Positions 1,419 through 19,487 of a stretch of DNA of 19,487 nucleotides are shown piece after piece (position 1 is the first letter of the stretch; each line of letters begins with the position of its first letter). The stretch comes from a virus. Its lineage: Duplodnaviria > Heunggongvirae > Uroviricota > Caudoviricetes. Made by a program: the position numbers and the translations under genes. The notes beneath the pieces are model-generated. The model did not search any database. It worked only from the letters and a program-made list of their open reading frames with translations, and was not told where the DNA came from. The stretch is taken from IMG/VR virus record IMGVR_UViG_651053023_000006. One strand, 5' to 3'.

Positions 1419-3284
1419 TTAAAAATCAGCCTGACTCGGGATCAGTTTTTGCCAGATAGCTGAAACGTATTTTGCCTGGTAACGAGCGTCATCAAGTGCA
1501 TTATGGCGCTCACCTTCGAATGGAATAGCCGTTCTGGCATCGAAGTCTATGGCTTTCCCCAGCTCAACGATTGTGCGTACATCGCGATCGTTGTAGTAAC
1601 GCCACGGGCAGGGGATCCCCTGCCGTTCGTATGAACGGCGCAAAATCGTGTTGTCGAAGTTGGCTCCATTTCCCCAGACCTGAACAAAAAATTCACCGGA
1701 GTTTTCGTCGATAAATTCTCGCAATTGTAACAGTGCATCATCTAACGGGATTTCATCGGTCATAATGGCAGATTGCGCTTCGCGTGATTGCTTCAGCCAC
1801 CATTTAATGGTGTTCCGATCAATGACTCCGCCAGCAGTTTCCAGATCGATAGTCTTACTAAATTCCGGTCCCATATCTCCGGTTTGCGGATCGAAAAATA
1901 TTGCACCTATTGAGATAACCGGGGCATCAGGATTTTTTCCCATGGTTTCGAGGTCGATCATTAGATGGTCACACGTCCTGCTGGTGGATGTGATTTCGTG
2001 ATGACCGTTCATCTTAATTGAGTGATCTGCCGCCTCGCCAGTTTCATTATCGCTGGCGTGGTCCTGAGCGCTGCCAGCATTCTCCTTGTGTGGATGTTCA
2101 GCGCCTTCCATTTTCTCCGGATCGTTTTCCTGAACTTCAACCTGATTCTCTTCATCGAATGTTTCCTGGTATGTTGCGTCGCCCATCACCGCGCCACAAT
2201 CAGGGCAGTTGCCGCCACCGCTCTGACCGCAGGCGGTGCAGACTTTTTCCGCTTCCTGTTGCGCTACTGGCTCAGGTTGTTTTGTTTCCGGCTCGTTTTG
2301 TAACGCATTTGGGCTGTTTTGTTCCGCTTTCTGGTCGTTCTGTTCCGTTTCTTGCTGGTTCTGGTTCACAGAATCGCGGGTTTCAATCCCCTTCACCCAT
2401 TTCGGATCATTCGGGTCGCTAATCCCTGCAACAAATTCTCCGCGAGAGGCAGCAAGCAGTTCATTAGCGTCAGGCTGGCTGATATTGGCTGCCTGCATAA
2501 TTTTGTTTACTTCGTCAGCGGTAACTTTTACCGGCTCTGGTTGTGCGGTCGTGTCAGATGCACCAGTATTTTGTTGTGAGCCTGAGTATGTACCGTTTTT
2601 GCGGGCAAAATATTCTTCTTTCGTGATTTCAGTAGCCCCTGCAGCCAGCGCCTTATTCAGACCAGAAAGTTTGTTTGCACGACCATATTTTTCGCCATCC
2701 TTATCGGTGAAAAGGAAGTAGAACGGCCCCTCACGCTCTACAGATGGTTCAGTTTCCAGCGTGCTTTCATTTTTTTGGGTATCAGATACTTCAGTTTCCA
2801 CTGCATCAGTTTGTGCTGCTGACGGCTGGAGAATATCAGCAGCGTTCTGGTCTGTTTCTTCATCCTCAAACACGCCCTTTGTCGCCAGGTATTCAGTGAT
2901 GTATTTGTTCAGTGCTACGGGATCTTTGTGAATGTCGATCGGACGCTCACGGACAAGGCCAAAAATAGTCTGACGGTCGTAGCGGACGGCATCGGGTTGT
3001 TTGCGCATTGATGCGGAAATGCGCTTCCAGTCTTCGCGATCTTTGTCGATAACTTCATTGTTTCTGGCTAACCAGCAACGCGCGCCAGATTCGGTTTTAA
3101 ACGTTTTGCTTTTGGTATATGTCATCGCGGTGAACGTACCGTCCTGGTTGGGGAACACGCCGCATACCAGAGATTCGTTGTTGCCAAGATCGATAGTATC
3201 CATGCTGACCTCATTTCCCCTTAACGCCGGGGTAGCGGAACAAAAACCTGCTGCATAGTTATTAAAGTTGAACCCTGCCGTCAT
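1419..3284 (-). CDS. Phage exonuclease, C-terminal DnaQ-like DEDDh 3'-5' exonuclease domain with acidic N-terminal region and CxxC...CxxC zinc ribbon
   Basis: 621-aa ORF. C-terminal motifs read in the translation: IDLETMG (Exo I), NGANFD (Exo II), HNALDDA (Exo III). Zinc ribbon [16 protein letters not shown]. Start is ambiguous: ATG at 3282-3284, or ATG at 3201-3203 which has GAGG 7 nt upstream. Confidence 0.7.
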
Positions 3285-3494: not shown

Positions 3495-3773
3495 TTAGGG
3501 AAACTGGCGTCTTGCGTGGATCACGTTTACTACTTCAACGCTTGATGTTGTTACGCGGTATAGAATTATATAGTTAGGGTGGGCTACAATCTCACGCAAG
3601 CCAGGTACTCTGTCGCTTGGTGGGTATAAATACGGATGTTCGGATAACGGCAGCACACAACCCCTTAATCGCTGCCATAAGCGTTCAGCCGCATCTATGT
3701 CGAAACGAGCAATATAGCTAGTTATATCATCTAGGTCGGTATCTGCGCTTTCAAGCCATAACACGGGTAACAT
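3495..3773 (-). CDS. parE2: ParE-family type II toxin (ParE2-like)
   Basis: Track ORF trimmed to the internal ATG at 3771-3773, giving 92 aa. Typical ParE pattern (DLDDI...YRV...EVVNVIHARR). Start overlaps the stop of the upstream antitoxin (3775-3777). Confidence 0.75.
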   Translation of the reverse strand: MLPVLWLESADTDLDDITSYIARFDIDAAERLWQRLRGCVLPLSEHPYLYPPSDRVPGLREIVAHPNYIILYRVTTSSVEVVNVIHARRQFP

Positions 3774-3774
3774 T

Positions 3775-3966
3775 TTACTGCTTGCTCCGTTCCTTGCGCA
3801 TTTTAGCAAAGCGTTCTGCCATTCTGCGCTCAACTTCGTCATGGGGAATTGCTGGGCGCGGATCTGCAAGGCTCGTTGCTACTTTCGCACGCAGCCATTC
3901 GTTGTAACTGTTTTCTTGTTCAATGGTTTCAAATTCAGAAACCATTGGTGAAAGGGCTCTATTCAT
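3775..3966 (-). CDS. paaA2: Antitoxin of ParE toxin (PaaA2-like, 63 aa)
   Basis: ATG at 3964-3966 with AGGAGG-type RBS on the coding strand (GGAGGAAACATG). 63 aa (MNRALSPMVSEFETIEQENSYNEWLRAK...) immediately upstream of and coupled to the ParE gene. Size and sequence match my recollection of PaaA2 from the E. coli O157 paaR2-paaA2-parE2 module. Confidence 0.65.
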   Translation of the reverse strand: MNRALSPMVSEFETIEQENSYNEWLRAKVATSLADPRPAIPHDEVERRMAERFAKMRKERSKQ

Positions 3967-3986: not shown

Positions 3987-4358
3987 TCAGGCGCGGCGGC
4001 ATTTTTGCGCCGCAATCCATCTCGCTATGAGATCTTCCATTGATTCTTTTTTCTGCTTTAACTCGCTGATTATCTGGCGTTGCTCATCCTCAGGGAAGGC
4101 TGAAAAAATCTGCAATAATTCCAGTTGATTAGACGTTAACCCTGCATGTGGTGGAGAAACTTCCGGTTGTTCTGCGTATTCCGCATCCAGATACCCTTCC
4201 GGCATCCCGTATGTTTGCTCTATTCTTCTGGCAGCCTTTTCTCCAAACGAGGCCCTCCCACTCATTAGTTGAGATAGGTAGCTCTTCTCTTTGGGTGGCA
4301 GAGTTTTATCTTTAAACCACTCCTTGAGACGTAAACGGCGAATTTCTTTTTTTTGCAT
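3987..4358 (-). CDS. paaR2: HTH transcriptional regulator in the prophage repressor (CI) position, PaaR2-like
   Basis: Track ORF starts at GTG 4421; I prefer ATG at 4356-4358 (123 aa). It lies divergent to the cro-like gene and is first in an operon with the antitoxin and toxin. There is no SD before the ATG, which would fit a leaderless mRNA. Confidence 0.6.
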   Translation of the reverse strand: MQKKEIRRLRLKEWFKDKTLPPKEKSYLSQLMSGRASFGEKAARRIEQTYGMPEGYLDAEYAEQPEVSPPHAGLTSNQLELLQIFSAFPEDEQRQIISELKQKKESMEDLIARWIAAQKCRRA

Positions 4359-4359
4359 G

Positions 4360-4455
4360 TGGTAATTATCTTTAGTAATCACTAAACAAGCAAATACTTG
4401 ACTTAATGGTTTATTAAACACTAAACTCGCAAAAAAACACTAAACCGAGGAAGGT
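4360..4455. promoter_or_regulatory. Divergent promoter/operator region (OR-like) between regulator and cro-like gene
   Basis: Three direct copies of CACTAAAC (4379-4386, 4419-4426, 4437-4444). Candidate rightward promoter TTGACT (4397-4402), 17-nt spacer, TAAACT. The cro-like gene has a strong RBS (GAGGAAGG). Confidence 0.4.
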
Positions 4456-4758
4456 ATGACATTAAAAGAGTTTATTAAATCATTGAGGGTTGGTGATGCT
4501 AAGAAATTCGCGGCCAGACTTGGTGTATCGCCATCTTACTTATCGCAAATGGCGTCTGGACGAGCAGCTATATCTCCAACCCGCGCCCTTATGATCGAAT
4601 CTGCGACGGAAGGCCAAGTAAGTAGGGCGGAGCTACGACCCCATGATTGGGAGCTTATTTGGCCTGAGTATGCGAGCGGCATTCGTTTGGGGCAAACACA
4701 TGTAGTTCATGCTGAAGGTGATTGTAGTGCATGCTTATCTGATGGAGTTGATTCATGA
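4456..4758 (+). CDS. Cro/YdaS-like HTH regulator
   Basis: 100-aa ORF, ATG at 4456, with an HTH segment (FAARLGVSPSYLSQMASGRAAISPTRAL). Divergent from the repressor-like gene. Its stop overlaps the next start as ATGA at 4755-4758. Confidence 0.7.
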   Translation: MTLKEFIKSLRVGDAKKFAARLGVSPSYLSQMASGRAAISPTRALMIESATEGQVSRAELRPHDWELIWPEYASGIRLGQTHVVHAEGDCSACLSDGVDS

Positions 4759-5179
4759 AAATCAAGCATGAACACATCCGCATGGCGATGAATGCCTGGG
4801 CGCGTCCTGATGGCGAAAAAGTTCCAGCAGCTGAAATAACCCGGGCTTATTTTGAGCTTGGTATGACGTTCCCAGAGCTATATGACGACAGGCATCCGGA
4901 AGCCCTGGCTCGCAATACTCAGAAAATTTTCCGCTGGGTGGAGAAAGACACCCCTGATGCGGTTAAAAAATTCAGGCGCTGTTACCGGCGATCGAAAAGG
5001 CAATGCCACCTCTGCTGGTGGCCCGAATGCGCAGCCACAGTTCAGCCTATTTTCGGGAGCTGGTGGAGATGCGGGAACGACTGGTGAGAGACGCTGATGA
5101 TTTTGTCGCAGTGGCGATCGCTGGTTTCAATCAGATGAATCGTGGTGGTCCGGCGGGAAATGCCGTGGTGATGCACTAA
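4755..5179 (+). pseudogene. cII/YdaT-like regulator gene interrupted by a frameshift at an A6 run (4965-4970)
   Basis: Frame 1 from ATG 4755 stops at 5087. The frame shifted by -1 after the A6 run reads cleanly to TAA at 5177-5179 (...IQALLPAIEKAMPPLLVARMRSHSSAYFRELVEMRERLVRDADDFVAVAIAGFNQMNRGGPAGNAVVMH). A single extra A would give one ORF of about 141 aa. Confidence 0.5.
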
Positions 5180-5202
5180 AAGCACGGTGTTCGGAGTTTT
5201 TT

Positions 5203-6150
5203 ATGAGCAGCAAGCTTCATGGTCTTGTCTGGGAAGGGTGTGCCTTCACCGGCATGATCTTATCCAGGGTGGCAGTTATGGCTCGCCTTGCAGATTACAG
5301 CAATGACGAAGGTGTGTCATGGCCTGCAGTGGAGACCATTCGTCGTCAGATTGGGGCAAAGAGTGAATCAACGGTTAAAGCTGCGATAGCAGAACTGGAA
5401 AAGAACGGCTGGCTGACGAAGGAGGAACGTAAGGTCGGTGGGCGTAATGAAAGCAATATCTACCGTCTTAATGTGGAAAAACTCGAAGCAGCAGCAGCGG
5501 CAGCGCGTGAGGCATATAAACCGAAAAGAAAAATTAGCCAGGCAAAAAATGACCCGTCAAATATTGACCCCTCAACGGTTGACCCGTCAAATTTTGATGG
5601 ATCAACCGTTGATAAAAAACAGCCGGTTAGGGGGGCGATGGTTGGCCCCGATCCGTCAGTATTAAAACCTGATCCGTCAGATAAAAGATCTTTTCGTCCG
5701 GACGCTTCGCAACCGGACCCGCAGACGGCTGAACAGGATTTTTTAACCCGACACCCTGACGCGGTTGTGTTCAGTGCGAAAAAACGCCAGTGGGGCAGCC
5801 AGGAGGATTTAGCGTGTGCGCAGTGGATCTGGGGACGAATCGTGAGTCTTTACGAGCAGGCTGCCAGCGATGATGGCGAAATCATGCGACCGAAAGAACC
5901 CAACTGGACTGCATGGGCCAATGATGTGCGCACAATGCGGATGCTGGATGGCAGAACTCACAGACAAATTTGCGAAATGTTTGGTCGGGTACAGCGGGAT
6001 CCATTCTGGGTAAAAAACGTCATGAGCCCGTCAAAGCTTCGCGAAAAATGGGATGAGCTGGTTATTCGTCTGGGGCGTTCGCCTGTACAGCGTTGCGTGA
6101 ATCACATTTCTGAACCGGACACCGAAATTCCGCCGGGATTCAGGGGGTAA
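5203..6150 (+). CDS. Replication initiator, lambda O-like, with iteron-encoded linker
   Basis: 315-aa ORF with GGAG RBS. N-terminal winged-helix-like segment. The central peptide repeats (DPSNIDPSTVDPSNFDGSTVD...PDPSVLKPDPSD) are encoded by DNA iterons. It is followed by a DnaC-like loader gene. Confidence 0.7.
   Translation: MSSKLHGLVWEGCAFTGMILSRVAVMARLADYSNDEGVSWPAVETIRRQIGAKSESTVKAAIAELEKNGWLTKEERKVGGRNESNIYRLNVEKLEAAAAAAREAYKPKRKISQAKNDPSNIDPSTVDPSNFDGSTVDKKQPVRGAMVGPDPSVLKPDPSDKRSFRPDASQPDPQTAEQDFLTRHPDAVVFSAKKRQWGSQEDLACAQWIWGRIVSLYEQAASDDGEIMRPKEPNWTAWANDVRTMRMLDGRTHRQICEMFGRVQRDPFWVKNVMSPSKLREKWDELVIRLGRSPVQRCVNHISEPDTEIPPGFRG
5548..5690. repeat. Iteron array inside the O-like gene (candidate ori)
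   Basis: Repeated TGACCCGTCAA-type units (ATGACCCGTCAAAT, TTGACCCCTCAAC, TTGACCCGTCAAAT, GGATCAACCGTTGAT, CGATCCGTCAGTA, TGATCCGTCAGAT), each with partial dyad symmetry, followed by an A/T-richer stretch. Confidence 0.5.
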
Positions 6151-6156
6151 CGAAGC

Positions 6157-6903
6157 ATGAAAAATATTGCGACAGGCGGTGTTCTTGAACGCATCCGTAA
6201 GCTGGCTCCGCAGCATGTAACCGCGCCATACCGAACAGTGGACGAGTGGCGCGAGTGGCAACTTGCAGAAGGCCAGAAGCGTTGCGAGGAGATCAACCGC
6301 CAGAATCGTCAGTTGCGGGTGGAAAAAATTCTGAATCGCTCCGGCATCCAGCCGTTGCACCGCAAGTGCTCGTTTGCGAATTACCAGGTGCAGAATGACG
6401 GCCAGCGATACGCGTTGAGCCAGGCGAAATCCATCGCCGATGAACTGATGACCGGATGCACAAATTTCGCATTCAGCGGAAAACCTGGTACCGGGAAAAA
6501 CCACTTAGCGGCGGCTATCGGGAATCGCCTGCTGAAAGATGGCCAGACAGTGATTGTGGTTACCGTGGCTGATGTCATGAGTGCTCTACACGCCAGCTAT
6601 GACGACGGGCAATCAGGCGAAAAATTTTTGCGGGAACTGTGCGAAGTGGATCTGCTGGTTCTTGATGAAATTGGTATTCAGCGCGAGACGAAAAACGAGC
6701 AGGTGGTACTGCACCAGATTGTTGATCGCCGGACAGCGTCGATGCGCAGCGTGGGGATGCTGACAAACCTGAACTATGAGGCCATGAAAACATTGCTCGG
6801 CGAGCGGATTATGGATCGCATGACCATGAACGGCGGGCGCTGGGTGAATTTTAACTGGGAGAGCTGGCGCCCGAATGTTGGTCAGCCAGGTATTGAGAAG
6901 TAA
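6157..6903 (+). CDS. DnaC-like helicase loader (phage P / YdaV-like AAA+ ATPase)
   Basis: 248 aa. Walker [14 protein letters not shown] and Walker [19 protein letters not shown]. Immediately downstream of the O-like gene. Confidence 0.85.
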
Positions 6904-8278: not shown

Positions 8279-8287
8279 GGGGGGGGG
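8279..8287. repeat. G9 homopolymer tract separating two ORF fragments
   Basis: Nine consecutive G read directly in the sequence. The upstream fragment ends ...INRMLRGGGL and stops at TAA 8291-8293. The downstream frame encodes YNQSKKHPQSDIELVRKLHQCGVPRRDIAVKREMSLGMINQYVYFDRRAHEV and stops at 8445-8447. Confidence 0.9.
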
Positions 8288-10755: not shown

Positions 10756-11877
10756 GTGTTTAACGGTACTAATTTAAGACTTGCTCGTCTGTATCACGAG
10801 CTATCTCTGGAGCAGGTTGCTGAGAAGGTTGAAAAAACACGCCAGTATGTACAGCGACTGGAGTCTGGTTCAGCTACTCCATCCCCAGAGCTTATAAATA
10901 AATTAGCCGAGGTTTTGCGCGTGAAGCCCGCCTTTTTCGAAGGGCAGGAACATTCTCCTGTTAATGAAGAGATTGTACATTTTCGTAAACGCGCCTCGAC
11001 AAGGATGTCAACGAAGCTATCAACACTCGCTAAGGCTGAGTTTTATCGTCGTTTTATTGATGTATTTGAAGATAACCTTAATTTGTCACCTGTTCGATTT
11101 CCTGAATTTCGTGTCCATACACAAGAAGATATCGAGCGAGCGGCAGAAAAATGTCGTATTGAGTGGGGCTTAGGCTTTGGCCCAATTGAAAATATGACTC
11201 GCCTTGCCGAGAAACTTGGGGCGTTTGTTACTTCATTTGACTCCGTTTCGGATGAAGTAGATGCACTGTCTGTTCCTCTACGAAGGCCTTTTATTGTTCG
11301 AAATACAGCTAAAAATTCACCTTGTAGGCAACGCTTTGATATTGCTCATGAGGTTGCCCATTTGATTCTTCATGAAGGAATTTCTACTGGGGATAGATTA
11401 ACTGAATCCCAGGCAAACCGTTTTGCCTCTGCTCTGTTGCTTCCCAGAACGTCGATGGCGAAATATTTTCCAAGACCTGTGGGGGGGAGGATAAATTGGC
11501 AGGGACTAAGCCAATTTAAGTTGACATGGAAAGTAAGTAAGGCTGCCATTGTTTACAGGGCTCATCAATTAGGACTTTTGACTGATGAGCAGTACAGAAC
11601 TGCATTTATGGGGTTGAAACGGAAAGGGGAAGCTATTGATGAAAAAGAAGATTATCTAATCCCTCATGAGCGTCCTGAGTTATTCCGTCGGGCTTTATCG
11701 TTTTTATTTGAAGAGTTAGGATACGACCCACAGCGTATAGCTGATGAAATGGATATAGAAGTGGACATTTTTTATGAGTTAGTAGGAGATGATCTTCCTG
11801 CGGTTCATGAACTGCCAGGAAGTGGTGATGTTGTTTCACTACAATCTTACCGAACTCTTAGAGGCAAAATTCACTAG
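10756..11877 (+). CDS. XRE-family HTH fused to ImmA/IrrE-type zinc metallopeptidase (COG2856-like)
   Basis: GTG start at 10756. N-terminal HTH (LRLARLYHELSLEQVAEKVEKTRQYVQRLESG...ELINKLAEVL). Central HEXXH motif (FDIAHEVAHLILHE) in the arrangement typical of ImmA/IrrE peptidases. 373 aa. Confidence 0.75.
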   Translation: MFNGTNLRLARLYHELSLEQVAEKVEKTRQYVQRLESGSATPSPELINKLAEVLRVKPAFFEGQEHSPVNEEIVHFRKRASTRMSTKLSTLAKAEFYRRFIDVFEDNLNLSPVRFPEFRVHTQEDIERAAEKCRIEWGLGFGPIENMTRLAEKLGAFVTSFDSVSDEVDALSVPLRRPFIVRNTAKNSPCRQRFDIAHEVAHLILHEGISTGDRLTESQANRFASALLLPRTSMAKYFPRPVGGRINWQGLSQFKLTWKVSKAAIVYRAHQLGLLTDEQYRTAFMGLKRKGEAIDEKEDYLIPHERPELFRRALSFLFEELGYDPQRIADEMDIEVDIFYELVGDDLPAVHELPGSGDVVSLQSYRTLRGKIH

Positions 11878-14360: not shown

Positions 14361-14532
14361 AAGGCATATATTTTATGCAAATCTGATATTTTGCCGATTT
14401 TGTACGTGATGGCAAAAGCAAACAAAACCCGCCCAAATGTGGTTTTTTTTGTGCCACTTATCTCGGATAGACATGGTGAATGCGCTGGTGGAGGAAGTAA
14501 GGGTGATTTTTAACCAGGTGATTTTTGAATGC

Positions 14533-14570: not shown

Positions 14571-14646
14571 GGCCCTTTAGCTCAGTGGTGAGAGCGAGCG
14601 ACTCATAATCGCTTGGTCGTTGGTTCAAACCCAACAGGGGCCACCA
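14571..14646 (+). tRNA. tRNA with CAU anticodon, Ile2 (lysidine) type by similarity to ileX; tRNA-Met not formally excluded
   Basis: 76 nt including CCA. Acceptor stem GGCCCTT/AGGGGCC. Anticodon stem AGCGA/TCGCT with loop CTCATAA (U33, CAT, A37). T arm GTTGG-TTCAAAC-CCAAC. Closely resembles E. coli tRNA-Ile2 as I remember it. Confidence 0.9.
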
Positions 14647-14657
14647 TATACAACAAA

Positions 14658-14693
14658 GGGTTAGCTAATAAATCAGCTAACCCTTTTTCTTTT
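14658..14693 (+). terminator. Rho-independent terminator downstream of the tRNA
   Basis: 9-bp stem GGGTTAGCT/AGCTAACCC with an 8-nt loop, followed by TTTTTCTTTT. Confidence 0.6.
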
Positions 14694-14704
14694 GCCTTTG
14701 AATT

Positions 14705-14727
14705 GGGTCAGGTAATGGGTCAGGTAA
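14705..14727. repeat. Tandem direct repeat GGGTCAGGTAA x2
   Basis: GGGTCAGGTAATGGGTCAGGTAAG read directly, at the junction between the tRNA terminator and the island. Confidence 0.6.
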
Positions 14728-14745
14728 GCTTTTTCTCCATCTGAC

Positions 14746-15591
14746 TCAGATGGCTGATAGTTGCCCCGGATAATGCTTCGCAATGATGTCATTTAGCCGA
14801 TCAACCAGTTCCGGTTTTCTGAACGTGATGTGCGCGGAGCCCTTCTTAAAGTATCTGATGCTGAACATCTCATCTTCATAGCTCTCTTTACCCTGAACAG
14901 ACTGAATGTGATCATCCAGACGAATAGTGATGTTTTCCCGGTTGTCGGGGATCGGTTTGCCGCTGAACAGATGCAGCATTCTTTCCAGGTCGGCAAGTCG
15001 ATCGGCCTGTTGCCCGGTGATAAGATGAAACCCCCACCGGTCCCACCTCACCAGGTTGTTGACGATAATTTTACTGCTAAATTTGCAGGGGCAATTGGTT
15101 TTGTAATTCCAGCTCAGCCCTCTGAAGACGTTGATCACCCCTCGCTCAAACACCTCATCCTTATTCTGGTGCAGTTGTTCAAATGTGCTCAGAATGTTCG
15201 CTTCACTGATTTCCGGAAAATTATCGTACTCCAGTGACCGGTACCATGTATCACGGGCCTGCGCATCCATTAATGACAGCATCCCGGAACGTTGCATCAG
15301 ATCACGCCAGAGTTCGCGATCAAGATTGTGTGTGATGGCTTTCATTGCCGTTTCAGGTTTCTCCATGAGCCAGCAGCCACAGCGAAAATCCTGTTTCATC
15401 GCCCAGCCCAGTGCGGTTTTACCGCCAATACTTTCTGTCATTGCTGAGATTTCAGCCAGTTGCCGGATAAGTGTGTCGATTTGCAGCAGTGAACTCTTTC
15501 GTACAGCCAGAATGTGGCGGATACTGGTTGAGCAGATAACGTCCGTATGCCCGTTGACAACTTCCGGACGGGAGGCTGTGATATCAGACAT
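14746..15591 (-). CDS. Conserved hypothetical protein, distal gene of a CP4-type island
   Basis: 281-aa ORF, ATG at 15589-15591 with AGGA upstream. Context: downstream of a cbtA/cbeA-type module. Confidence 0.6.
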   Translation of the reverse strand: MSDITASRPEVVNGHTDVICSTSIRHILAVRKSSLLQIDTLIRQLAEISAMTESIGGKTALGWAMKQDFRCGCWLMEKPETAMKAITHNLDRELWRDLMQRSGMLSLMDAQARDTWYRSLEYDNFPEISEANILSTFEQLHQNKDEVFERGVINVFRGLSWNYKTNCPCKFSSKIIVNNLVRWDRWGFHLITGQQADRLADLERMLHLFSGKPIPDNRENITIRLDDHIQSVQGKESYEDEMFSIRYFKKGSAHITFRKPELVDRLNDIIAKHYPGQLSAI

Positions 15592-15675
15592 AATCGATAT
15601 TCCTTTTTGCAGATAAATGAAAACGCCAGCCCTGTTCAGGCTGGCGTCAGTGGAATGAAGTCTGGTGAGTAAGAC

Positions 15676-15873
15676 TCACCGGTTCTGTTGCAGAAGCTGC
15701 AGTTGGCGCAGGGTATGGATATCTTCCCTGGCCTGTTCAATGCAGGGCAGCAGTGCTGCCGAATCCATTTTATCCTCATCGTTGTCGAAGATAATTCCGG
15801 ATTCGCAGTCGATATTGTTCTGTAGCCACGCAATCAGAATATCCAGCGCCGTTTCTGTGGTTAATGATTCCAT
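15676..15873 (-). CDS. Small conserved hypothetical protein (about 65 aa)
   Basis: Track ORF 15676-16110 overlaps the upstream gene out of frame. Only the part from ATG 15871-15873 (MESLTTETALDILIAWLQNN...) is non-overlapping. Confidence 0.45.
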   Translation of the reverse strand: MESLTTETALDILIAWLQNNIDCESGIIFDNDEDKMDSAALLPCIEQAREDIHTLRQLQLLQQNR

Positions 15874-15892
15874 ACTGTGTCTTTTGTCCAGG

Positions 15893-16381
15893 TTACCAGT
15901 TGAAGGTGGGTAAACCCGGCAGGCATTCAGCGCTGGCATCCAGGTGAATGAGACTGACGCCATAACGCCGGATGAGTGTGACAACCAGACGACGGAATGT
16001 TTTTGACAGGCCCAGACGTTTAAGTTGCAGAACCGGGTATGACCACGCATCGGTACGTAACAGATATCCGCTACCGGTAAAATGAATCCATTCTGATTCG
16101 CCGAAGTCACTGGTCTGGTGTGACAGCGAGTACAACCAGGCGTTGTCTGTTTCCGTGATATGTGCGGTGCTGCAGCGTATACCGCTCAGGGCAGCGGAGG
16201 GTGGCATGCTGTCAGTTGCGGTCCGGTCAGATTCATCAACAACACGAAGGGAGTAGCCATTGTCGCAGGCCACGTTAATCAGTTCAGCAAGATTAACACC
16301 ATCGACGTCAACGACAATGCGCCCCATGTTCAGTGCCTGCACGTTAATGCTGTCGGCTTCCAGCGTCAGGGCCAGTTTCAT
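15893..16381 (-). CDS. YeeW-like hypothetical protein
   Basis: 162 aa. Its ATG (16379-16381) overlaps the stop of the upstream toxin gene as ATGA. Confidence 0.55.
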   Translation of the reverse strand: MKLALTLEADSINVQALNMGRIVVDVDGVNLAELINVACDNGYSLRVVDESDRTATDSMPPSAALSGIRCSTAHITETDNAWLYSLSHQTSDFGESEWIHFTGSGYLLRTDAWSYPVLQLKRLGLSKTFRRLVVTLIRRYGVSLIHLDASAECLPGLPTFNW

Positions 16382-16755
16382 TGTTTCGCCCCCGGATGTT
16401 TACCCAAGATAATGTTATTTACCGTTCTGTAATTGTCGCGGGCCATCAGGCCGGTTGCCCGGCGGGTCCGGAGGATATCAATACTGTTTATTAACTGAGA
16501 GCGGGTACAGGTGCTGAACCCCGGCTGGTCGGTTCGTACCAGTGCGTATTTTTCCACGAGAAAGTTCACCGCATCGCACAGTGAAATGCCTGCCTCAATA
16601 TGCTGCTCAATCACACGTTCATCGGCAAACGGTGTGTCATTCAGCGTGAGGCCGTAATGCTGGTCCAGCAGTCGGGTGAGCAGTATCTGCCAGATGGTGA
16701 CGGGAGACGGGCAGCGCGATGCCTCCCGTACATGCGTGTCGGGTAATGTTTTCAT
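16378..16755 (-). CDS. cbtA: CbtA-family type IV toxin (YeeV/YkfI/YpjF family)
   Basis: Track ORF trimmed to ATG 16753-16755 (125 aa, MKTLPDTHVREASRCPSPVTIWQILLTRLLDQHYGLTLNDTPFADERVIEQHIEAGISL...). Lies downstream of a CbeA-like antitoxin. Paralog assignment is uncertain. Confidence 0.8.
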   Translation of the reverse strand: MKTLPDTHVREASRCPSPVTIWQILLTRLLDQHYGLTLNDTPFADERVIEQHIEAGISLCDAVNFLVEKYALVRTDQPGFSTCTRSQLINSIDILRTRRATGLMARDNYRTVNNIILGKHPGAKQ

Positions 16756-16844
16756 ACTGAAGATTTTCCTGATATGCAGAGATGAAAAATGGAAAAGTGG
16801 CGTGGTGAAAACACCAGGCCGGAGCAGAAGGTTATTCTGGAGAG

Positions 16845-17213
16845 TTACTTTTTCGTTTCGGGCGTCGGATAAACAGCCATATAAACGTAGCCACAACTGC
16901 CGAGGGTGTCGGCTTCGCAGGTCAGCCCTTTTGCATACAGTGTCACGGTATGCTGATGGCGGGGGCTGAGTTCACCGCTGGTGAGCATGAGCTCCAGTTG
17001 TTTCATCAGCAGCGGAAAGGCCTGGTCCAGGTGGTACGAATCCGCGTCGCTGAACCGGCCTCTGATACCGGCGCGGTCTGCAAGGTAATGCAACCGGTTA
17101 CCCTCCTGCACCAGACGTGCACCGAAACAGGGCGTCACGGAGCAGGGTAGCCCCCACCAGGGGCGGTCGTTGTTATCGTCGGGATGCGTTGTCCCGGGGA
17201 GTGTGTCTGACAC
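16845..17213 (-). CDS. cbeA: CbeA-family antitoxin (YeeU/YfjZ/YafW family)
   Basis: 122 aa, GTG start at 17211-17213 with GAGGA 8 nt upstream. MSDTLPGTT...PWWGLPC...RLHYLADRAGIRG... matches the family as I remember it. Confidence 0.8.
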   Translation of the reverse strand: MSDTLPGTTHPDDNNDRPWWGLPCSVTPCFGARLVQEGNRLHYLADRAGIRGRFSDADSYHLDQAFPLLMKQLELMLTSGELSPRHQHTVTLYAKGLTCEADTLGSCGYVYMAVYPTPETKK

Positions 17214-17292
17214 GATAAAATCCTCACAGAAAATTGGTTAAGAATGGTCCGGTGGTGGCGATAATTCTGCTCTTCTGAATGCCTTTCCAGAC

Positions 17293-17514
17293 TCAGTTCA
17301 GGGTGACGCTCATCAGCCGGACATACGGACCAAAACTGTCCTTACGGCGTTCGGCAAACACGGCAAGAACGCCGGGAATATCCTGCACTTCACGACCGGT
17401 ATACGCCTCAGCACCGCCGTGCCAGCGGTATTTACCGGTACAGAACGGAAAAAGACGGGATGCAGGATGCTGACGGTGAATACGCATGGCTTCACCACAG
17501 GTGATGATTTTCAT
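17293..17514 (-). CDS. yeeT: YeeT-family small protein (DUF987)
   Basis: 73 aa (MKIITCGEAMRIHRQHPASRLFPFCTGKYRWHGGAEAYTGREVQDIPGVLAVFAERRKDSFGPYVRLMSVTLN), nearly identical in pattern to YeeT as I remember it. Confidence 0.8.
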   Translation of the reverse strand: MKIITCGEAMRIHRQHPASRLFPFCTGKYRWHGGAEAYTGREVQDIPGVLAVFAERRKDSFGPYVRLMSVTLN

Positions 17515-17600
17515 GAGAATAGTCCTCCTGAATGTGAAAGTAAGAAACAGCTGAGAAAGAGAAACTGAAGTGATATGAAGGTGATTGTGACGGTGACGGG

Positions 17601-18077
17601 TTAAAGCAGACCGTGTTCCGCAAAGGAGAAAACCTGGCTGCCACCGATTATCAGATGGTCCGGCACCCGGATGTCAACCAGGGCCAGTGCCTGTACCAGA
17701 CGTTCCGTAATAAGGCGGTCAGCCTTACTGGGTGTGACTTCACCGGACGGATGATTGTGTGCCAGTACCACGGCAGCGGCATTGTGGTGCAGGGCGCGTT
17801 TAATCACCTCCCGGGGATGGACTTCCGTGCGGTTGATGGTGCCTGTGAAGAGGGTTTCACCGGCAATCAGCTGATTCTGGTTGTTCAGATACAGCACCCG
17901 GAACTCTTCCCGCTCCAGTCCTGCCATGTTCAGAATCAGCCATTCCCGTGCCGCATGCGTGGAGGTGAAGGCCACACCGGGTTCATGAAGATGGCGGTCC
18001 AGGGTTTTCAGGGCCCGCTGAATGAGGCTGCGCTCACCGGGCGTCATCTCTCCTGGCAGAAAGGAAAGCTGTTGCAT
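17601..18077 (-). CDS. RadC-like JAB/MPN domain protein (YeeS/YfjY/YkfG family)
   Basis: Track ORF starts at GTG 18182; I prefer ATG 18075-18077 (158 aa). JAMM-like HNHPSGEVTPSKAD motif. Confidence 0.75.
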   Translation of the reverse strand: MQQLSFLPGEMTPGERSLIQRALKTLDRHLHEPGVAFTSTHAAREWLILNMAGLEREEFRVLYLNNQNQLIAGETLFTGTINRTEVHPREVIKRALHHNAAAVVLAHNHPSGEVTPSKADRLITERLVQALALVDIRVPDHLIIGGSQVFSFAEHGLL

Positions 18078-18091
18078 TGTTCCGGCCCCTT

Positions 18092-18577
18092 TCAGTCGAT
18101 GATGCGCATAATGGCGCTGCATTCCGGATGCTGCAGGGCGTAGTCCCGCAGACGGTAATAATGAACCGTCATGGCATAACACTCCGTACGACAGGCGTGA
18201 TGGCTGTATGTCATCAGACAGGCTGCAATGCCGGCGGCTTCCGGGCTCATTTCAGCGCGGTTACCGTTCATGGCATTGAACAGTACCCATGTTTCGTCAT
18301 CATCGTCATCCGGTTCGGGTGCCATAAATGCCCCTCCGTTATTCAGTGTGTACAGATTCCAGATACCACCGCAGTAGTCTTCACACAGACGGTCCATCCA
18401 GCCGAAGATACGGGGCTCCAGGGTCACCCACTGTGGGATGAGGCCAAAATGCTGCGGCCAGAAGCTGATACGTTGTTCATCAGGGACGAGGCTGGCAACC
18501 AGCTGAGGCTGGTTATTCCCTGATGCAGTGGTTACGGAAACAGAAGGTGTGGTTGAATTATGCGAAACGGTTGTCAT
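18092..18577 (-). CDS. Antirestriction protein (KlcA/ArdB-like, YfjX family)
   Basis: 161 aa, ATG 18575-18577 with AGGA RBS. Acidic patch (EPDDDDDE). Position between DUF932 and RadC-like genes is typical of CP4-type islands. Confidence 0.7.
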   Translation of the reverse strand: MTTVSHNSTTPSVSVTTASGNNQPQLVASLVPDEQRISFWPQHFGLIPQWVTLEPRIFGWMDRLCEDYCGGIWNLYTLNNGGAFMAPEPDDDDDETWVLFNAMNGNRAEMSPEAAGIAACLMTYSHHACRTECYAMTVHYYRLRDYALQHPECSAIMRIID

Positions 18578-18668
18578 GAGATTATTCCTTATAAAAAGTA
18601 AATGAATGGAAGAATGCCTGGGGGAAGGGACAGACGTGAGTCAGGGCTGCACTTTCAGGGAAACAGCA

Positions 18669-19487
18669 TCAGCGCATGCTCTCCAGCAGCGTTTCTGCCA
18701 TCACCCACAATGCGCGATTGAGCTTAATGTCCGTGTCGATGCTGTGAATGGCACGGGTGTGGATACGTTTTCCTTTAGCGCTGCGACCGGAAATCCCGCC
18801 TTTCAGCATATTTTCCTGGATGGTCTGATAAGCACTCCACAGGTCCTTACCGTAATCCTCCCGGCGTCGTGGCGTCAGAATGTCGGCGGTGGTGACGGGC
18901 TGATGTTCGTCACCATAACGGTAATTCAGTGCCGCCTGTGCCAGCGCCTGGCGTGCCGGTGGCGGTAAGACCAGAGACTGCATGGCATCACGCTTTTCCT
19001 CAATCCGGTCAAACACGCCCACCACCTCGTAAGCCCCTTCAATGACTCTGTCCACCACATTTCCCCGGTGTGGAACACTCACTTCCCCCAGAGACTGACC
19101 ACAGACGCAGCCGTTCTGGCAGACGAACCTGAAGTAACCCGGCAGCATCTGGTAGCTGGAGGTACCGTCATGGGAGTTCAGCAGGATGATTTCAGGGACA
19201 TGTTGTCCGTTTATCTCCCCGTCACGGCGCAGACGCAGCATGTGTCTGGTGTATCCCCGGCGGCCCGGGTCGCGCACGCGGGTCTGGCAGGCGAAGAATG
19301 GCTGAAAACCTTCCCGCTGCAGGTTTTCCAGTACGGTGATGGTGGGAATGTACGCATAGCGTTCACTACGGGAGGTATGCCGGTCTTCCCCAAAAATACT
19401 GGGTACATAGTGCATCAGTTCTTCGTGTGTCAGCGGACGGTCACGGCGTATCTGGTTTACATGACCAAAACGACTTGCTAATCGCAT
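18669..19487 (-). CDS. DUF932 family protein (YfjQ/YafZ-like)
   Basis: 272-aa ORF. Its ATG is the last three bases of the window (19485-19487), so the CDS appears complete but its upstream region is not visible. Confidence 0.7.
   Translation of the reverse strand: MRLASRFGHVNQIRRDRPLTHEELMHYVPSIFGEDRHTSRSERYAYIPTITVLENLQREGFQPFFACQTRVRDPGRRGYTRHMLRLRRDGEINGQHVPEIILLNSHDGTSSYQMLPGYFRFVCQNGCVCGQSLGEVSVPHRGNVVDRVIEGAYEVVGVFDRIEEKRDAMQSLVLPPPARQALAQAALNYRYGDEHQPVTTADILTPRRREDYGKDLWSAYQTIQENMLKGGISGRSAKGKRIHTRAIHSIDTDIKLNRALWVMAETLLESMR

Follow-up and report, generated by a model that had tools for sequence, protein, structure and literature searches.

A one-nucleotide shortfall in an A tract breaks the reading frame of the CII-like regulator gene ydaT in a CP-933P-type prophage: mutation or homopolymer error

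In the immunity region of a lambdoid prophage, the gene that occupies the place of a lysis-lysogeny regulator is divided between two reading frames, raising the question of whether it was inactivated by mutation, misread at a homopolymer during sequencing or assembly, or is expressed through a programmed slip. The gene, ydaT, lies on the plus strand at positions 4755-5179 of the 19,487-nucleotide stretch of DNA analysed here (the window), and measures 425 nt versus the 426 nt of intact genes. The original prediction described it as a cII/YdaT-like gene broken by a frameshift at an A6 run, with mutation or homopolymer error ranked as likely and a programmed slip as unlikely; this ranking holds, all tests for a slip being negative.

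The open reading frame begins at ATG 4755-4757 and, in frame 0, continues for 110 codons to TGA 5085-5087. The codons at the junction are GTT (4962-4964, V70), AAA (4965-4967, K71), AAA (4968-4970, K72), and TTC (4971-4973). The translation of this ORF (4755-5087) comprises YdaT residues 1-72 and 38 out-of-frame residues, FRRCYRRSKRQCHLCWWPECAATVQPIFGSWWRCGNDW, among which are five Cys and five Trp (26% C+W). In the -1 frame, a TAA at 4964-4966 precedes an open segment that runs from AAA 4967 to TAA 5177-5179 (4967-5179, plus strand) and reads K-IQALLPAIEKAMPPLLVARMRSHSSAYFRELVEMRERLVRDADDFVAVAIAGFNQMNRGGPAGNAVVMH; it corresponds to YdaT residues 72/73-141, namely what remains of helix 4, together with helix 5, the hinge, and helix 6, the tetramerisation helix, with helix boundaries taken from PMC9986795. 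The A run spans exactly 4965-4970, is the sole homopolymer at the frame junction and the longest in the gene, and in alignments marks the site where the window is 1 nt short of the A7 of intact alleles. The minus strand of 4755-5179 contains no gene-like ORF. All coordinates of the predicted Cys/Trp-rich tail, from ATG 4755 to a stop at 5087, are therefore correct, as is the claim of a coherent -1 frame after the A6 run, which aligns to YdaT residues 73-141 in the structures 3c4r and 8bt1. The further claim that one added A restores an ORF of about 141 aa agrees with the A7 relatives, which encode exactly 141 aa.

The identity of the gene follows from the restored protein. With one A added, the product is WP_000693861.1, exact copies of which occur on 133 contigs, and it matches PDB entries 3c4r (E 2e-87, residues 1-141) and 8bt1, the YdaT of CP-933P (E 2e-79, residues 2-141). 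Because the restored protein matches both structures over its full length, the broken-frame pattern is not a product of chance. In Pfam, the restored protein scores 39.2 bits against PF06254 (cut-off 21), whereas the 110-aa product as written scores 19.7 bits and falls below the cut-off. An intact family member would carry in a single frame the POU-like HTH domain (residues 3-90) and helix 6 (approximately residues 96-124); the window frame departs from YdaT once residue 72 is passed, and the window thus holds either a pseudogene or a miscalled copy of a YdaT family member.

Two findings would have spoken against the prediction: conservation of the frame-0 product as written, or a downstream frame devoid of homologues. 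Neither was obtained: among 5.8 billion protein clusters, none had a word in common with the frame-0 tail, and the downstream frame showed homology to residues 73-141 of YdaT. Likewise, neither the 110-aa nor the 58-aa product has an exact entry in a collection of 15 billion proteins, which thus contains no second, independently assembled copy of this allele.

Alignment to intact homologues, which had been proposed as a check, placed A7 in the homologues and A6 in the window. Against ETEC1732 and E24377A, the ydaT alignment contains a single gap, located in the A run, and both relatives have A7 and 426 nt (141 aa plus stop); E24377A is a Sanger-era strain. The ETEC1732 gene is otherwise identical to that of the window (425/425, zero substitutions), and ETEC4090 ydaT is likewise identical save for the one A missing from the window. 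A megablast search with positions 4700-5250 matched 3290 of 5426 complete E. coli genomes, and in the four best of these (porcine ETEC from Belgium), 551 query bases aligned to 552 subject bases at 99.8% identity. The feature beneath the best matches is annotated as a "toxin YdaT family protein".

The genes surrounding ydaT are arranged in two divergent groups, with parE2, paaA2, and paaR2 transcribed leftward (minus strand) and ydaS, ydaT, an O-like gene, and a DnaC-like gene transcribed rightward (plus strand). The region is a CP-933P-type immunity region as described in PMC8630535. Immediately upstream of ydaT, ydaS (4456-4758, plus strand, 100 codons; Pfam YdaS_toxin and HTH_3) overlaps its start by 4 nt, and the exact YdaS protein of the window was found on at least 1000 contigs; its role as a Cro analogue has been reported (PMC8630535). 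The paaR2-type repressor gene, the CI analogue, lies at 3987-4358 (minus strand; 123 aa from ATG 4358) at the same offset-corrected coordinates as a 372-nt CDS of ETEC4090. A Pfam search with its product gave no match, and its position and role are those described in PMC8630535. Further leftward are paaA2 (3775-3966, minus strand; Pfam PaaA2, E 1.7e-19) and parE2 (3495-3773, minus strand; Pfam ParE_toxin, E 4.8e-16), a pair (3495-3966) co-transcribed with paaR2, whose assignment agrees with the RefSeq annotation of relatives; paaA2-parE2 is the true toxin-antitoxin pair of the region. Downstream of ydaT, both the O-like replication gene (5203-6150, plus strand; Pfam HTH_36) and the DnaC/IstB-like gene (6157-6903, plus strand; Pfam IstB_IS21) are intact.

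The regulatory sites in this region are also preserved. The OM palindrome, TTGATTCATGAAAATCAA, at 4748-4765 spans the ydaS stop and the ydaT start, and it is the only exact match in the window to the YdaT operator motif TTGATTN6AATCAA, for which 0.09 matches are expected by chance. This motif and its location at the end of ydaS have been footprinted (PMC9986795). A candidate for the rightward early promoter is the sigma-70-like promoter at 4398-4427. An Rfam scan of the window reported a tRNA at 14571 only. Taken together, the PF06254 match, the two PDB matches, the location of the gene after ydaS and ahead of the replication genes, and the intact operator uphold the assignment as cII/YdaT-like; sequence, context, and operator support membership of the gene in the YdaT family as a putative functional analogue of lambda CII.

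A second slippage-prone tract is present in the same immunity region: the T8 at 4347-4354 on the plus strand is an A8 in codons 2-4 of paaR2, which starts ATG CAA AAA AAA GAA. In ETEC1732, this run is one A shorter, and the annotated CDS encodes 118 aa versus 123 aa.

Comparison with characterized regulators clarifies both the likeness and the defect. The restored protein matches CP-933P YdaT (8bt1, from E. coli O157:H7) and the CFT073-type homologue (3c4r) nearly end to end, and the window shares with CP-933P the gene order parE2-paaA2-paaR2 / ydaS-ydaT-O and a TTGATTN6AATCAA site at the ydaS/ydaT junction. Unlike CP-933P YdaT, the window gene breaks frame after Lys72, leaving part of helix 4 and helices 5 and 6 out of frame. 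Lambda CII has the same role and position, being encoded behind cro in the rightward early operon and activating the leftward establishment promoter of the repressor operon (PMC8630535), yet the two proteins are unrelated in sequence and fold, YdaT being composed of a POU-like HTH and a tetramerising helix (PMC9986795). The YdaT of the Rac prophage in E. coli K-12 belongs to the same Pfam family (PF06254), occupies the same place after ydaS, and is the source of the "toxin YdaT" annotation; its identity to CP-933P YdaT is only ~31% (PMC8630535). Published experiments have been used to make the case for YdaS and YdaT being analogues of Cro and CII rather than a toxin-antitoxin pair (PMC8630535). 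The "toxin" name is a historical misnomer, and the label is disputed.

Could the two frames be joined by recoding? Programmed or leaky expression, by a -1 slip of tRNA-Lys on AAA AAA or by transcriptional slippage, would provide useful full-length YdaT. Slippage by -1 at the A run would yield the wild-type sequence ...V-K-K-I-Q-A..., and the geometry is permissive in that the -1 frame opens only at 4967; moreover, tRNA-Lys is slippery on A runs. An A6 tract is, however, shorter than the runs known to support appreciable RNA-polymerase slippage, and homologues encode the protein in a single frame with A7, i.e., the split arrangement is not conserved. The context GTT AAA AAA TTC (T AAA AAA T) contains no slippery heptamer of the X XXY YYZ type in the zero frame and would permit perfect re-pairing of the A-site tRNA only. 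An SD-like element was absent 10-14 nt upstream of the A run, the nearest GGAG being >20 nt upstream, and no frameshift-type element was found at ydaT with Rfam.

As for a downstream stimulatory structure, the check recommended for a programmed slip, the 90 nt at 4971-5060 fold with a minimum free energy of -27.3 kcal/mol versus -27.8 +/- 3.2 for shuffled sequences (z = 0.17), so that nothing beyond shuffled expectation was detected and such a slip stays unlikely. In an exact-pattern scan of IMG/VR, the A7 20-mer was found on at least 120 contigs, the A6 19-mer on one, and the A8 form on none. The extra A is present in all 95 aligned relatives, most of which were retrieved by the A7 pattern and hence do not constitute an independent sample. 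The dnaX site (A AAA AAG) and the A6G/A7 sites of IS elements share with ydaT an A-rich lysine run where a -1 slip gives a sensible product; unlike these sites, ydaT in the window lacks an X XXY YYZ heptamer, an SD-like stimulator, a downstream structure, and a conserved two-frame layout. A programmed -1 frameshift was rejected, with heptamer, SD-like element, structure, Rfam, and conservation all negative, and useful recoding of any kind is considered extremely improbable. Trace -1 read-through that regenerates wild-type YdaT is conceivable.

The same lesion was found outside the window. An A6 23-mer matched an IMG/VR prophage contig, which is identical to E. coli C8, and a gut metagenome contig of low coverage (1.7; OQER01008646); among GTDB representatives, it matched none. 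A search of the 5426 complete E. coli genomes seeded with two A6-only 37-mers identified A6 ydaT in two, E. coli C8 and E. coli E3, against a rough denominator of 1136-1544 genomes with window-type ydaT. Both genes are annotated as "frameshifted" by PGAP: RG30_RS09310 in C8 (NZ_CP010125.1; 24644-25068 of L129) and ACVX3V_RS11215 in E3 (NZ_CM130010.1; 1306-1730 of L131). They share with the window the change from A7 to A6 at the same codons and the length of 425 nt, and differ from it in being other alleles (~85-92% nucleotide identity) with other repressor, cro, and replication neighbours. Three alleles in three different immunity regions indicate independent hits on one tract, and the occurrence of the lesion in C8 and E3 as well marks the A7 tract as a recurrent weak point. 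The C8 prophage has a near-identical counterpart in PapM-36-2 that carries A7, and across 13.4 kb at 99.93% identity, that A is the sole indel between them.

Two further genes of the C8 prophage are annotated as "frameshifted"; one of these, the TraR/DksA gene, is in the same state in PapM-36-2 and is thus either inherited or an effect of the annotation model. The metagenome contig (1930-2289) carries an E3-type ydaT allele with A6 together with further homopolymer deletions (T4 to T3, C4 to C2) and appears to be an error-rich assembly, indicating that the ydaT A tract is easily undercalled.

Recurrence invites the reading that loss of ydaT is selected at a hot spot, or that the tract acts as a crude phase switch, with the change from A7 to A6 silencing a gene to the benefit of the host or locking the immunity switch. 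The same lesion on three alleles in three immunity regions (window, C8, and E3) and its status as the only indel in 13.4 kb between C8 and PapM-36-2 are in line with this reading, as is the reported harm caused by overexpressed YdaS/YdaT-type regulators (PMC8630535). The frequency is nevertheless tiny (2 of 5426 complete genomes; 1 versus at least 120 contigs in IMG/VR), and each case could equally reflect neutral decay or assembly error. Contingency loci typically have tracts of at least 8-9 nt, with ON and OFF lengths both common, a pattern that ydaT does not show: its ON tract is 7 nt, a 6-7-nt tract is short for such a locus, and IMG/VR holds no A8 form. Selected loss or phase switching is accordingly rated as very unlikely. 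The fuller proposal, in which A7 would be a recurrent and possibly selected off-switch in at least three prophage lineages, locking repression or removing a harmful regulator while slippage on A6 leaves a trickle of full-length YdaT, fares marginally better and is still quite improbable.

The choice lies chiefly between a true mutation and a consensus error. For the former, one A:T pair would have been dropped from A7 by ordinary replication slippage in a CP-933P-type lambdoid prophage, and this unprogrammed frameshift would make ydaT a true pseudogene in a decaying element, a conclusion to which we assign an even chance of being correct. The same prophage shows genuine structural decay, so a ydaT pseudogene would be unsurprising; a deletion of ~2.36 kb and a replaced late region are lesions that base-calling error cannot produce. 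The alternative is that ydaT is intact in the strain, with A7, and that one base of this 7-base homopolymer was missed in the consensus, a serious possibility to which we give a little less than an even chance. An artefact would fit a 1-nt deficit at the longest homopolymer of the gene, with no accompanying substitution relative to ETEC1732. It would also fit the rarity of the A6 state, a singleton for the window allele (found in that allele in 0 of 5426 complete E. coli genomes, with the allele unique among these and the 15 billion proteins), which counts against a real lesion. Assemblies of this prophage family often disagree in homopolymer length (G9/G7, T8/T7, G7/G6, and T8/T7), and the low-coverage metagenome contig described above combines A6 with other homopolymer deletions. 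The exact O-like protein of the window is on record on one contig only, and the integrase and DUF968 protein of the window have AEJ accessions (AEJ55921, AEJ55933), which may point to a source assembly from about 2011, possibly pyrosequenced.

Against an artefact, in addition to the structural decay, no other frameshift was found among ~30 other genes of the window, despite 43 other runs of at least 6 nt, including A7, T8, and G9, none of which breaks a gene. The ydaT A tract is also the sole indel that sets the window apart from all aligned relatives, although a single isolated error would be compatible with this pattern. At 11481-11487, moreover, the gene is intact in the window and split in ETEC4090. 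This G7 lies in ORF 10756-11877, which encodes a 373-aa XRE/ImmA-IrrE protein with exact copies on 693 contigs; the G6 at the equivalent position in ETEC4090 divides the gene into pieces of 245 aa and 118 aa, and homopolymer frameshifts thus occur in reference relatives too. In intergenic DNA, run lengths vary among close relatives at 8279-8287 (G9 versus G7) and 14443-14450 (T8 versus T7); of the few relatives aligned, approximately half have the same G9 and T8 lengths as the window, so that these runs look polymorphic rather than window-specific.

If the lesion is real, its consequence can be predicted from the published structure, in which recognition helix 3 comprises residues 50-63, a rigid POU-like domain spans residues 3-90, a hinge occupies residues 96-99, and helix 6 assembles into an antiparallel bundle of four helices that generates a tetramer (PMC9986795). 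Translation from ATG 4755 would produce YdaT residues 1-72 and 38 nonsense residues, retaining helices 1-3 with the recognition helix. The break lies within the DNA-binding domain, midway through helix 4, so that the second half of this helix would be lost along with helix 5, the hinge, and the entire helix 6. Even the published YdaT 1-96 fragment is a monomer that fails to shift operator DNA (PMC9986795), and for this reason the product as written should be inactive, neither binding the operator nor activating a PRE-like promoter. In CP-933P, YdaT activates such a promoter (PRE933P), which drives paaR2-paaA2-parE2 (PMC8630535). YdaT provides an establishment function, so repression in a resident prophage should persist in its absence, presumably upheld by a PRM-like promoter. 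In a resident prophage that is defective, as this one already is on other grounds, losing ydaT should be neutral. The original prediction that a genuine lesion would disable the regulator thus stands with respect to the product, predicted to be inactive from the YdaT 1-96 data, and is refined with respect to its effect: the role lost would be that of establishment, and the resident prophage would not be destabilised.

A real lesion would therefore represent loss of the establishment regulator as a further decay step in an already crippled element, in which case the appropriate annotation is a frameshifted ydaT pseudogene in place of a 110-aa protein and a 58-aa ORF. An artefact would instead mark a homopolymer error in the source assembly. 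In both cases, the A7 tract at codons 71-73 is a weak spot of the ydaT family, and because the lesion recurs on independent alleles, frameshifted ydaT calls merit a read-level check before a biological reading. The significance beyond annotation is small, and the finding is of a known kind: RefSeq annotation already records the identical lesion, and the structure, operator, and CII-like role of YdaT have been published.

The rearrangements elsewhere in the prophage affect both flanks. Relative to ETEC4090, ~2.36 kb are absent between 9-bp repeats (microhomology), with the junction at ~3055-3063 within a gene at 1419-3284 (minus strand). The deletion fuses a DUF1391 gene in frame to the 3′ part of an exonuclease gene, yielding a 621-aa protein with DUF1391 (residues 29-75) and an Rv2179c-like exonuclease domain (residues 440-611). 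The lost segment carried dicB, ydfD, and two small genes. The exact 621-aa fusion protein was absent from a public gene-position index. On the other flank, similarity to lambdoid prophages reaches precisely to the 3′ end of a tRNA carried by the phage at 14571-14646 (anticodon CAT; tRNA-Ile in relatives), the late region is replaced over 14647-19487, and from the tRNA start onward the window matches a CP4-like island. This junction possibly arose by integration of the island into the phage tRNA copy, by recombination or inversion between tRNA copies, or by a misjoin. The island encodes DUF4942, DUF957, DUF5983, a CbtA/YeeU toxin-antitoxin system, DUF987, a JAB/RadC-like protein, an antirestriction protein, and DUF932, and in other E. 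coli it adjoins the chromosomal ileX, next to mug-rpoD.
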